From: a virus
Lineage: Duplodnaviria; Caudoviricetes
Reading direction: 5' to 3' (one strand)
Virus record (IMG/VR): IMGVR_UViG_3300025133_009061
Location: 8,643-72,642 of that record
Length of the DNA: 64,000 nt
How positions within the stretch are numbered: the first letter of the stretch is position 1; the number at the start of each line of letters is the position of its first letter. The translations under genes were made by a program, and so were the position numbers. Of this stretch, positions 26,594 to 29,683 are shown one piece after another. Below the pieces are notes generated by a model, which made no database searches, was not told the origin of the DNA, and saw only the letters and a list, made by a program, of their open reading frames with translations.

Positions 26594-27067
26594 TTATTGT
26601 CCGGAGCTTCCGAATCCTTGCTCTCCCCGTGAAGACTCTTCTAGTGTTTTCATAGATTTCCACTCAACAGTATGACATTTCTCAATAATCAGTTGAGCTA
26701 TTCTGTCGCCCGGTTTTATTTCCGTTCTGTTCGCTGATCCAAACATTGCTTCAAAAGCATTAGGTTTTAAATTATAACCCTCGAAGTTCAAGTTTATCAA
26801 TAAAACTTTTACTTCGCCTCGATAACCGGAATCTATTACCCCGGCCATCACGTCTATACCTTTCTTACACGCTAAACCGCTCCGTGGGGCCACTCTCCCG
26901 TAAAAACCTTCGGGAATTTCCACGTTGATTCCTGTTGAAATCAGCTTTCGCTGAAAGGGTTCGAGAGTGACGTATTCTCTGGAGAAAAGGTCATATCCTG
27001 CGTCAGATGCGTTTGCCCTGAAGGGTTCTTTTCCTTCCGGATTTAGTTTTGAGTATTTAATTTCCAT
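26594..27067 (-). CDS. dut: Trimeric dUTPase
   Basis: DAGYDL, RSGLA, GVIDSGYRGE, DRIAQL, RGEQGFGSSG. Confidence 0.95.
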   Translation of the reverse strand: MEIKYSKLNPEGKEPFRANASDAGYDLFSREYVTLEPFQRKLISTGINVEIPEGFYGRVAPRSGLACKKGIDVMAGVIDSGYRGEVKVLLINLNFEGYNLKPNAFEAMFGSANRTEIKPGDRIAQLIIEKCHTVEWKSMKTLEESSRGEQGFGSSGQ

Positions 27068-27467
27068 ATTTAATACATTCTACGTTATAAAACTCTAAAA
27101 TCTCTAAAGCGTTTGCGTCTCGCTTGTAGACGTCCCGATAAATAACCTTGGAGATTCCGTATCCAGCTATCATTGTCGCGCAAGCAGAGCATGGAAGTAA
27201 CGTTATAGCAAGCATTTGAGCTTCTCCTTTTTTAAAAAGACTTAAACAGTTCACTTCGGCATGAATCATGAATTTTCGGCGGTGATCCCTATTTCTCCAA
27301 AAATCATACCCAACGTCCTTCCCTGTAGCTAATCCGTTGTATCCCACAGCCACTACCATATGCTGCTCATTTAAAGCGCACGCTCCCACTTTCACGAAAT
27401 GATCTTCACTTCGGCTCGATACCGTTTCGGCAATATTGAGGGCGTATTCTTCCCACGGAATCCTCAC
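27057..27467 (-). CDS. dCMP deaminase
   Basis: VGACAL, VGYNG, HAEVN and PCSAC zinc motifs. Confidence 0.9.
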   Translation of the reverse strand: MRIPWEEYALNIAETVSSRSEDHFVKVGACALNEQHMVVAVGYNGLATGKDVGYDFWRNRDHRRKFMIHAEVNCLSLFKKGEAQMLAITLLPCSACATMIAGYGISKVIYRDVYKRDANALEILEFYNVECIKYGN

Positions 27468-27476
27468 AAGGCCTTG

Positions 27477-27505
27477 AGGTTAACTTTTAGGGGGGAGAAA
27501 GTCAA
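27477..27505 (-). promoter_or_regulatory. sigma70-like promoter of the dCMP deaminase/dut operon
   Basis: TTGACT-17 bp (TTCTCCCCCC...)-TAACCT, 9 nt before the GTG start. Confidence 0.6.
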
Positions 27506-27574
27506 GAAAAAAAACCAACTTTCCCGGGGACTCTTTGCGACAGAACTTTTTCAGAAATCTTGTCGAAAAAAAGG

Positions 27575-27603
27575 TTGACATCCCTCCCCGTTTGAATTAA
27601 AAC
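27575..27603 (+). promoter_or_regulatory. sigma70-like promoter
   Basis: TTGACA-17 bp (TCCCTCCCC...)-TAAAAC. Confidence 0.65.
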
Positions 27604-27609
27604 ATTTGC

Positions 27610-27990
27610 GTGTACGAAAAAAAAACGGTCCGAACCCGTTTTGTCTTTGGGGAGAAATCCCAGAGTTTTCTGCCGGGAGTCTCATCGCGGGTGTGGAGTT
27701 CGCTACTCACATTCTTTGGCAGTTTAAGCGAGCCCAATGCGACTGGGCAGAAAAAAAACCGTTGGTTAAGTTCCAACCTCGTGCCCGAGGTGATGAGCAT
27801 GACAGAGGTGAATGTAGGTTATTAGCATGGTTCCTACTGCCTTAAGAAAGGTACTCTGTTGTTAATTTTAGTTAACTGGTCGCGCTTCCGTCGTTTGGCC
27901 TACGACATTAAACAAGAAGAGCCCCTCAGAAAAGTTCTGTTAAAGGAAGCCACTTGCCCCCTGAACTCGGGGGCAGTGGCTTCAGTATTT
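27610..27990 (+). ncRNA. Candidate structured non-coding RNA (~380 nt), family not recognised
   Basis: Bounded by promoter and terminator; many hairpins and long-range pairings (see findings); only short non-homologous ORFs. Confidence 0.45.
27946..27990 (+). terminator. Strong hairpin, terminator-like
   Basis: GAAGCCACT(T)GCCCCC-tgaactc-GGGGGCAGTGGCTTC, 15 bp with one bulge, then AGTATTTTT. Confidence 0.75.
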
Positions 27991-28042
27991 TTCCTTGAAA
28001 AAGTTACTGTCAATAGGCTGAGTTCAACATAATTAATACTAA

Positions 28043-28636
28043 ATGAAGTTTAAATATAAAAACATAGGTATCGCTGGTGTCGCTGGATGCGGAAAGAATA
28101 CTTTAGCGGAGATAATAATAAAATTATTACAAAGATTAAATCTACCGTACCGGGAGCTTTCTATAGCAAATAATTTAAAAAAGGAATTAAGTTCTTCCTC
28201 CCGTACTCTTTACGGAATCGATTCGATGGACTGTACACGTAGAGAAAAGGTCCTTATAAGACCTTTTCTTGTGGCCCATGGGAAAATAAAACGGAATTCT
28301 TCCGCTGGGAGGCATTGGGTAGATTTATTAAATAAAGAATTAGACCCGCAAAAAATTAATATTATTACGGACCTTAGGTATGACGAGTACGAAAAGGACG
28401 AGGCTTATTGGATAAAAAAGGAGATAAATGGAGTCTTGATTCACCTTTCTCGTTATAACGAAGTTAACGGCCAGAGGGTCTACATAAAGGCGGCTAACGA
28501 TGCAGAAAGGGAAAACGATCCCAAGATAAAGAAAAAAGCTGACTTTATTTTAAACTGGAAGTCCGAAAAAGATTTAACAAAAAAAATAATTTCTTCCTCT
28601 CGTTTGCTAAAATGGGTAAAGAGGTTATATGTTTGA
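28043..28636 (+). CDS. Deoxynucleoside monophosphate kinase
   Basis: P-loop GVAGCGKNT, IITDLRY..E. Confidence 0.75.
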   Translation: MKFKYKNIGIAGVAGCGKNTLAEIIIKLLQRLNLPYRELSIANNLKKELSSSSRTLYGIDSMDCTRREKVLIRPFLVAHGKIKRNSSAGRHWVDLLNKELDPQKINIITDLRYDEYEKDEAYWIKKEINGVLIHLSRYNEVNGQRVYIKAANDAERENDPKIKKKADFILNWKSEKDLTKKIISSSRLLKWVKRLYV

Positions 28637-29072
28637 AGGTTCTCCCCTCAATGATCGTTCATGTCAGCCAGTTATAGCATATAGCGGGAGAAACGCCGAA
28701 TTAACTCTGCATCCTTTGTCCATGACCCACTTTCATGGGTTAAATTTTAATGATTTAAGTTCTCTTTTTTCTTACGATATTAAGATTTCCCGTTTCGATA
28801 GTCAGTTATTTTCCAATGATTCTGATGTAAGTTTCGCTTTTATGGTAGAAAGTCAGGTGAAATCGGACAATTTCTACGAAGACCCCTTTAACGACGCTAA
28901 TGTTTTTTTGGAAAAAGATTTTAATAATTTAATCGAATACTGTATAATATTACCGCGTATGTTCAAGAGGCATCATCGCTATGTCCTTAATATGGAAGAG
29001 GATAGTGCTTGCTCTTTTGGAGATTTTGCGGATAAGGTTGAGGCATGGAAGAAAAACACTGGGATACTGTAA
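28629..29072 (+). CDS. Hypothetical protein
   Basis: Overlaps both neighbours in the operon. Confidence 0.55.
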   Translation: MFEGSPLNDRSCQPVIAYSGRNAELTLHPLSMTHFHGLNFNDLSSLFSYDIKISRFDSQLFSNDSDVSFAFMVESQVKSDNFYEDPFNDANVFLEKDFNNLIEYCIILPRMFKRHHRYVLNMEEDSACSFGDFADKVEAWKKNTGIL

Positions 29073-29647
29073 GTGATAATTATCTAGCTGAAAGGATTAA
29101 GGGCTCTAATTGCGAGAGAAGCTTAATAGAACTGATAGGGCGCCATTCCGGACTATGTTTTAAAATAATGACAAGATACTCTAAAAGCTTCTACGCCAAC
29201 AATATAGATATTGCCGAAGCCTCAACAGATAAAAATTTGATAATTTGGAACTCCGCTAAGAGTTTTAGCGCCGAAAAAAATGTCAAGTTCTCTACTTGGC
29301 TAGCGAACCAAGTTAAATATAGCTGCCTCAACGCTTTAAACAAAAAATCCAAAGACCGCCTCGTAACGATGGAAGATGAAATGTTGGATAACCTTAAAGA
29401 GACCCAAGCCGAAGACGAAAAAGATACCCTCTTTGAGTTTACTGACAATATCCTCGCTCAGTTAAAAGACGAAAGAATAAAAAAAATTTTTTCTATGAGG
29501 TATTCTCGTAATCATAAGAAACCTTCATGGTGTGTGGTGGCTCAACAAATGAGAGTAAGCACGCAAACGGCTATTAATCTTCACAATCGAGGCATCCAAA
29601 TCTTAAGAAAAAAAATAGAAAGCGAAAAATTTCTAGACTCTGTTTAA
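29045..29647 (+). CDS. Phage RNA polymerase sigma70-family factor
   Basis: Region 2 (LIGRHSGLC...AKSFSAEKNVKFSTWLANQVK) and region 4 HTH (IFSMRY...VAQQMRVSTQTAINLHNRGIQILRK). Confidence 0.8.
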   Translation: MEEKHWDTVSDNYLAERIKGSNCERSLIELIGRHSGLCFKIMTRYSKSFYANNIDIAEASTDKNLIIWNSAKSFSAEKNVKFSTWLANQVKYSCLNALNKKSKDRLVTMEDEMLDNLKETQAEDEKDTLFEFTDNILAQLKDERIKKIFSMRYSRNHKKPSWCVVAQQMRVSTQTAINLHNRGIQILRKKIESEKFLDSV

Positions 29648-29654
29648 AAAAGTA

Positions 29655-29683
29655 TTGACATCCCTCCCCGGGAGGTATAATAT
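29655..29683 (+). promoter_or_regulatory. sigma70-like promoter
   Basis: TTGACATCCCTCCCC (identical to 27575) with TAATAT at 17 bp (TATAAT at 15 bp). Confidence 0.7.

Follow-up and report, generated by a model that had tools for sequence, protein, structure and literature searches.

The window, a 64,000-nucleotide stretch of a Caudoviricetes virus (IMG/VR record IMGVR_UViG_3300025133_009061), carries a leftward and a rightward block of genes that are divided by a spacer of 575 bp (27468–28042). The leftward block encodes a dCMP deaminase (27057–27467), a dUTPase, an Hsp20 protein, and a class II RNR. The rightward block comprises, in this order, genes for a P-loop protein of 197 aa, for ORF147 (147 aa), and for a sigma-70-like protein. 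A reading made beforehand from the DNA letters alone (the sequence-only reading) had placed a structured RNA at a strand switch, and this gene layout bears out the placement. The coordinates of all features are compiled in Table 1.

The 197-aa protein was assigned as a deoxynucleoside monophosphate (dNMP) kinase (E = 4e-14 to the PHROG family) and is also weakly similar to the dNMP kinases of Thermus phages. ORF147 is kept in all related phages, and its structure is predicted with confidence (pLDDT 86). No Pfam or PHROG family could be assigned to it, and the best structural match of the predicted fold, a WGR domain with a Z of 5.0, lies inside the noise range stated for the tool. Downstream of the spacer lies an early phage operon that encodes the dNMP kinase, ORF147, and a phage sigma factor. 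At the far end of the window, a TnpB-like ORF with a Cas12f1-like TNB domain (62038–63435) precedes an array of 3.5 units of a 31-nt repeat (63519–63625).

A DNA search of the spacer against 50,697 phage records, cultured phages included, returned no match. The nearest cultured relative, Maribacter phage Panino, shares only 51% identity by its RNR, so there is no annotated counterpart of the locus. The relatives of the locus come from TARA and other marine metagenomes (JGI marine samples).

A sigma-70-type promoter precedes the RNA, and the predicted transcription start lies near 27610. The hexamers and the 17-bp spacer are as described in the sequence-only reading and are conserved in homologs; the promoter is kept in the loci of both RNA types, A and B, that are distinguished below. 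It belongs to a promoter family of this phage whose members carry A-rich sequence upstream of the −35 hexamer and a C4 block in the spacer that leads to the −10 hexamer. Six sites of this family were found in the window (+27575, +29655, +45270, +60162, −27505, and −24925), and they probably mark early transcription units. The site at +27575 is the only family member ahead of the kinase, ORF147, and sigma factor genes. At its 3' end, the RNA carries the terminal hairpin that had been proposed for it. This hairpin has 14 pairs in our model, is conserved in homologs, and spans 27946–83, with a U-rich tail thereafter.

Between the terminator and the kinase start codon (27992–28042), the + strand showed neither a consensus promoter nor a member of the phage's promoter family, in a scan to which promoters for a phage sigma factor would be invisible. 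The fold is on the same strand as the genes, with no promoter of a recognizable class in between, and in type A an intrinsic terminator stands between the fold and the start codon, as in a leader. The promoter and terminator of its own would also suit a stand-alone RNA gene; a separate promoter for the downstream gene, as expected in that case, was not found among the recognizable classes. On the minus strand, a promoter-like site (28013–27984, score 10 of 12) is directed back into the RNA. Among type A sequences, this site varies in its −10 and hardly at all in its −35 hexamer and spacer, and it could be either the promoter of an antisense transcript or a piece of the leader.

Table 1. Features of the locus and of related loci (positions refer to the window unless a locus is named)
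Feature	Position	Strand	Remarks
Sigma-70-type promoter of the RNA	27575–27603	+	−35 at 27575–80; 17-bp spacer with C4 block; −10 at 27598–603
Helix H1, 7 bp	27622–27642	+	100% paired; invariant, so no evidence either way
Helix H2, 8 bp, 5-nt purine loop	27645–27665	+	100% paired; four pairs vary on one side, one compensatory
Domain P3, 11-bp stem 27670–80/27711–22 with one bulged U	27670–27722	+	Six compensatory pairs; zero mismatches in 11 sequences
Hairpin P4	27732–27748	+	Two compensatory pairs; outermost pair broken in three sequences
Hairpin P5	27761–77	+	U-A to C-G in five sequences
Short hairpin adjoining P5	27778–89	+	C-G to U-A in two sequences
Three-way junction, closing stem 27802–07/27854–59	27802–27859	+	All closing-stem cells paired
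Three small hairpins (27861–76, 27890–906, 27927–39)	27861–27939	+	Stems invariant in 11 sequences
Terminator-like hairpin, 14 pairs, interrupted U-tract	27946–27992	+	Conserved; two one-sided changes
Type-specific rest of the 5' UTR, to the kinase start codon	27993–28042	+	Conserved block; minus-strand −35-like hexamer 28013–28008
dNMP kinase	28043–28636	+	PHROG 139 match
ORF147	28629–29072	+	
Sigma-like factor	29045–29647	+	Sigma-70-like protein
Downstream operon, three genes	28043–29647	+	Next promoter of the phage family at 29655
Type B RNA	L010:2679–2958; L001:3640–3919; 44 further loci	+; −	
Type C leader, ~440 nt	L005:2693–3186; also L004, L007	−	Visible compensatory changes among three sequences; canonical terminator

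A conserved structured RNA ahead of the operon

Searches with two flanking proteins gathered 84 loci, 13 of which hold the same RNA at 80–98% identity (three partial sequences, two duplicate records). The RNA is better conserved than the neighboring genes. Its identity to the window is 92% in L020, 88% in L035, and 85% in L018; the corresponding values are 86, 72, and 74% for the adjacent kinase gene (73, 53, and 54% at third positions) and 66, 62, and 61% for the untranscribed part of the spacer. In loci from close kinase homologs with enough upstream sequence, the RNA always lies directly upstream of the kinase, on the same strand, and once per locus. No other gene context was seen in the loci, viral contigs, and prokaryote genomes searched. 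An exact 20-mer of the RNA gave five matches in 185,579 prokaryote genomes, all due to chance and without the rest of the RNA; in viral contigs it recovered only the already known contig of L018, a type A carrier on 76 kb.

A 71-aa ORF (27610–27825) overlaps the element, and the sequence-only reading had conceded that its coding conservation would speak against a non-coding RNA. A frameshift or stop interrupts this frame in eight of ten homologs, which leaves the RNA unchallenged. The variable columns are distributed over the codon positions of the frame as 29/25/28, hence without bias, and a 79-aa internal frame is likewise frameshifted or interrupted in most homologs. Neither the open frame nor the codon bias of a protein-coding gene was thus found in the homologs.

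As the sequence-only reading had it, the RNA belongs to no recognizable family. A scan of the window and 15 related loci against Rfam 15 at gathering thresholds yielded no match, and the best sub-threshold match (E = 0.14) covers the terminator hairpin only. Representatives of types B and C gave no Rfam match at E ≤ 1, and ARAGORN detected neither tRNA nor tmRNA in the window. Nothing like the rod-shaped duplex of 6S RNA, which is long and has an open-promoter-like bubble at its center, was seen, nor was there an Rfam 6S match; the supported structure consists of local domains in a row plus a three-way junction.

The + strand folds better than its shuffles (z = −3.9). Since the minus strand is also low (z = −3.5), folding energy alone cannot pick the strand. 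Covariation was assessed on 11 sequences covering the RNA, by RNAalifold and then with a hand-corrected model of 14 helices and 93 pairs, in which 98.6% of the 1023 cells are standard pairs. Compensatory double changes occur at 13 pairs, compared to 0–3 after sliding the 3' partners by 1–3 columns; as the 11 sequences represent only about six lineages, such counts overstate the independent events. In 500 shuffles, the observed value was never attained in four of five measures, and the count of further pair types was no higher than in the shuffled alignments. Covariation, the absence of which the sequence-only reading had named as refuting, is present. The excess of G-U cells (100) over A-C cells (9) indicates an RNA on the + strand, where 1009 of the 1023 cells are paired versus 918 on the minus strand.

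Most of the helices first drawn from the single sequence recur in the 11 homologs. The helix at 27622–42 holds there without variation, the GAAA-capped stem at 27645–65 (H2, with several G-U pairs) holds and covaries, and both the three-way junction with its arms and the small stem at 27890–906 are retained. What persisted of a stem proposed at 27776–27791 was its core, 27778–89. A long-range helix 27666–74/27746–54 had to be given up: its five central pairs are unpaired in 3–8 of the 11 sequences, the 27746–54 side is deleted or altered in homologs, and the 5' side covaries with 27718–22. The true partner of 27670–80 is 27711–22, with 11 pairs. The window does contain the 11-bp inverted repeat that was said to bracket the element, but homologs have not retained its left copy.

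Even with so few lineages, the stem 27670–80/27711–22 by itself has six compensatory pairs, and these are of several kinds. Within this stem lie a conserved internal region and an apical hairpin (27689–27708), the latter supported solely by one-sided changes. In the closing stem of the junction, A-U to G-U replacements are the only changes. One junction arm (27814–37) presents an invariant 14-nt loop and one compensatory pair; the other arm spans 27838–53. The 3' region (27861–27939) is almost invariant, with a compensatory change in the hairpin 27890–906 in the partial sequence L045.

Taken as a whole, the element is a real structured RNA family of ~380 nt, which is apparently undescribed so far. 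The proposal of a novel phage ncRNA is supported by these data, the RNA being conserved, non-coding, structured on the + strand with covariation, and free of Rfam matches.

Different RNA types in the same position

The spacers upstream of close kinase homologs are of two sequence types, A (n = 15, including the window) and B (n = 46). Most related phages have type B in this slot. With a length of 280–310 nt, it shows compensatory changes at 27 pairs in 28 sequences, the long-range closing helix included, so that its support is stronger than that of type A. An apparent H-type pseudoknot was seen by eye at its 5' end. No terminator was found in type B before the kinase ATG, which implies that this RNA is co-transcribed with the operon. 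A profile cross-search between types A and B gave no match, and each of the two RNAs is present once per locus; they may nevertheless have a fold in common that is invisible to sequence profiles.

The extent of the difference between the types was delimited by comparing the window to L021, a type B locus with an 88% identical kinase. Homology runs through the −10 hexamer to ~27608, is lost, and comes back exactly at the kinase ATG. Because the homology of A and B ends at the transcription start and resumes at the ATG, the exchangeable unit is the whole 5' UTR. The element is the complete 5' UTR of the operon (27609–28042) and not a free-standing gene between two others.

On the trees of the kinase, ORF147, the sigma factor, and the deaminase, the RNA type changes 6, 7, 5, and 5 times, respectively; well-supported branches force at least 3, 4, 3, and 2 of these changes. 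As judged from the gene trees, types A and B have been swapped at least three times. None of the four proteins tracks the RNA type (5–7 switches each).

A further leader, type C, occurs before the operon in a more distant group of phages (L004–L007) and cannot be aligned with A or B. In still more distant relatives (L013 and L014), the same operon follows a short spacer without such an RNA. The RNA of the window is one of at least two, and probably three, interchangeable folded leaders of the phage sigma-factor operon.

The A, B, and C leaders, otherwise unalignable, have two short motifs in common. A CUCAG-plus-purine-run motif lies just 5' of the last hairpin (27923–27934 in the window), and outside the leaders it was encountered only ~16 times in 959 kb. 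A pyrimidine-then-GAAAA motif lies just past the last hairpin (27990–28003 in the window).

In two type B phages, a MUG113/T5orf172 gene (GIY-YIG-like, of the homing-endonuclease type; L022:1071–1745 and L074:581–1384, both on the minus strand) is inserted between the deaminase gene and the RNA promoter. Such a gene could favor recombination and with it the exchange of RNA cassettes.

Function of the RNA

No other promoter of the family precedes the operon, no consensus promoter follows the terminator, and type B has no terminator; the operon is therefore apparently transcribed through the RNA. Our best reading, which we hold tentatively, is that the RNA is a cis-acting transcription-attenuator leader. 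The large 5' domain, from H1 to the three-way junction, would fold co-transcriptionally and sense some input. This could be RNA polymerase itself, a protein of the phage or the host, or a metabolite from nucleotide metabolism. The sensed input would set how frequently polymerase passes through the terminator (27946–92). Gating at this terminator would control the timing or the amount of the kinase and of the sigma factor, by which transcription is redirected, and transcripts halted there would build up as a stable RNA of 380 nt. The same operon would have interchangeable leaders in type B and, in the more distant group, in type C, with an attenuating terminator assigned to types A and C.

The presence of a terminator between the fold and the genes in both types A and C argues for such a leader, and the interrupted U-tract is read as fitting partial or regulated termination. 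A search for an antiterminator duplex with both terminator arms returned best partners that are weak and differently placed between homologs. Other findings count against an attenuator. The 3' third is almost invariant, which would equally fit a trans-acting RNA with sequence-specific targets, the phages L013 and L014 run the operon without such an RNA, and no neighboring protein tracks the RNA type. At 380 nt, the RNA is also longer than almost any riboswitch leader known to us. Downstream of the terminator, there could be promoters that are used by the phage's own sigma factor.

The main rival, which is somewhat unlikely, is that the RNA is instead a stand-alone, stable non-coding RNA acting in trans on host or phage components as a regulator, decoy, scaffold, or catalyst, with the downstream genes expressed by leak-through or from an unrecognized promoter. 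A strong promoter of its own, a 14-pair terminator, and a size and multi-junction architecture like those of large orphan RNAs would all suit such a molecule, as would its invariant loops (e.g., the 14-nt loop of 27814–37) and the near-invariance of its 3' third. The swapping of two unrelated RNA types at one locus near early promoters points the same way, given that such swapping resembles the behavior of phage accessory or anti-defence modules. However, type B has no terminator and continues into the kinase gene, the cassette boundary is the ATG and not the terminator, a separate operon promoter was not found, and the RNA was never seen in another gene context. A trans-acting guide or scaffold RNA for the TnpB-like protein is hardly credible. 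The ends of the 31-nt repeat unit resemble 27915–22 and 27940–46 of the RNA, and motif halves of 8 and 7 bases are found in both places (27915–46 and the repeats at 63519–63625). Against this, the two elements are 35 kb apart, and the motif region is the same in every type A RNA, where a guide would be expected to vary. A pattern search suited to close relatives revealed no relative of the TnpB-like protein in the viral contig collection, which includes the L018 contig, and there was none in the single whole related phage record searched, that of a type B carrier. The combination of effector adjacency or repeat match with a variable guide, as expected of a TnpB omega RNA or a TIGR-type guide RNA (TIGR unit features according to PMC12045711), was not found.

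Three further explanations keep the RNA or its DNA in cis. A polymerase-modifying RNA that confers put-like or EAR-like processive antitermination, and makes polymerase ignore its own and later terminators, appears improbable. The layout of promoter, folded nascent RNA, terminator, and operon is that of the known systems (PMC9378689; PMC8191782), and a factor-independent element would be expected to have no co-varying protein partner nearby, as is the case here. The RNA is, however, five times the size of put RNA and resembles neither EAR nor any other model in Rfam, and the unit served measures only ~1.6 kb before the promoter at 29655, so that processivity seems unnecessary. We give very little credence to an origin-associated transcript, already raised as an alternative in the sequence-only reading, in which the RNA would prime or open an origin in A+T-rich DNA ahead of the kinase gene. 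The element does lie where the gene blocks diverge, at a local minimum of the cumulative GC skew, and most homologs have an A+T-rich tract behind the RNA. The skew tracks gene orientation, though, and hence is not independent evidence; moreover, selection acts on RNA base pairs including G-U and not on DNA alone, a search for iterons or repeats found none, and the element is absent from distant relatives. A sense/antisense pair is just as doubtful. The minus-strand −35-like hexamer at 28013–28008 would drive an antisense RNA that controls the leader by duplex formation, and the U-runs past the reversed hairpins 27761–77 and 27622–42 would serve as its terminators. The scan score of 10 out of 12, the near-invariance of the hexamer block in type A, and the terminator-like sites on the minus strand are consistent with this arrangement. 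Opposed to it are a −10 that varies at its key last base among homologs, the missing C4 spacer block of the phage promoters, the loss of the U-run after 27622–42 in L018-type sequences, and the lack of a counterpart in types B and C.

Relation to known systems and significance

The RNA can be set beside several known systems. T-box and cobalamin-type terminator leaders likewise consist of a folded 5' UTR domain, an intrinsic-terminator-like hairpin, and a regulated operon, in this order, and combine conserved junctions and loops with covarying stems. Unlike riboswitch leaders, the RNA matches no Rfam riboswitch or leader, is larger than almost all of them, and gave no conserved partner in the antiterminator search. 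The HK022 put, EAR, and conAn2-type leaders resemble it, on the leader reading, as nascent, folded, cis-acting RNAs that come directly after an early promoter of a phage or mobile element and upstream of a terminator. The put RNA consists of two adjacent stem-loops in ~70 nt (PMC9378689), which are enough to render polymerase resistant to terminators, and the conAn2-type element is a leader-encoded antitermination RNA of conjugative elements (PMC8191782). By contrast with put, the present RNA comprises 14 helices in ~380 nt and precedes a short operon, and no homology was detected.

The late unit of phage lambda (pR'-6S RNA-tR') is similar in its layout of promoter, short RNA, terminator, and genes. 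There, a constitutive promoter produces a short terminated transcript of ~200 nt, and the genes beyond are transcribed only on read-through, for which Q protein has to be loaded at the promoter. An evident counterpart of Q is missing at our locus, and we know of no requirement for a conserved fold in the lambda 6S transcript.

GOLLD and ROOL (bioRxiv 10.1101/2024.12.08.627333) are comparable as large, multi-junction, strongly covarying RNAs of phages and prophages whose function is unknown. The present RNA does not match their Rfam models, has a smaller size, and occurs bound to the 5' end of a single operon; GOLLD and ROOL themselves are associated with tRNA-rich regions. As an object, the RNA belongs with the orphan large structured phage RNAs, and by the tests applied here it is unrelated to GOLLD and ROOL. 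Given the absence of a model match and the different architecture, it is not assigned to any of the systems compared.

A catalogue of structured RNAs from IMG/VR lists ~10,000 unnamed candidates, and its text does not contain the gene context described here (PMC10690425). The catalogue shares its data source and the kind of object with this study, and IMG/VR contigs carry several of the type B homologs as well as one of type A. The RNA may be among the unnamed candidates.

The broadest interpretation of the locus, which we regard as unlikely, is that a clade of abundant uncultured marine phages controls its own sigma-factor operon by way of a slot that accepts large folded RNAs. Three or more structurally unrelated classes (A, B, and C among them) of 280–440 nt, sharing nothing but a short purine-rich motif, would be exchanged in this slot by recombination and would constitute new sensing or catalytic classes that set the switch from early to middle transcription. 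If so, A, B, and C would be new large folds of a riboswitch-like or ribozyme-like kind. To our knowledge, well-supported structured RNAs of more than ~300 nt are rare, and most of the characterized ones are ribozymes, large riboswitches, or unusual assemblies. Of the classes at this locus, two covary strongly and the third is thinner. All of them precede a phage sigma-factor operon, and the phages that carry them are common in ocean metagenomes (TARA, JGI marine samples). The alignments from this analysis would suffice as a starting point for structure probing, ligand screening, and cryo-EM. The repeated swap of non-homologous RNAs at one position would amount to a natural experiment, in which both types must meet the same requirement and thereby offer a handle on what that requirement is, and on how early transcription of these phages is gated.
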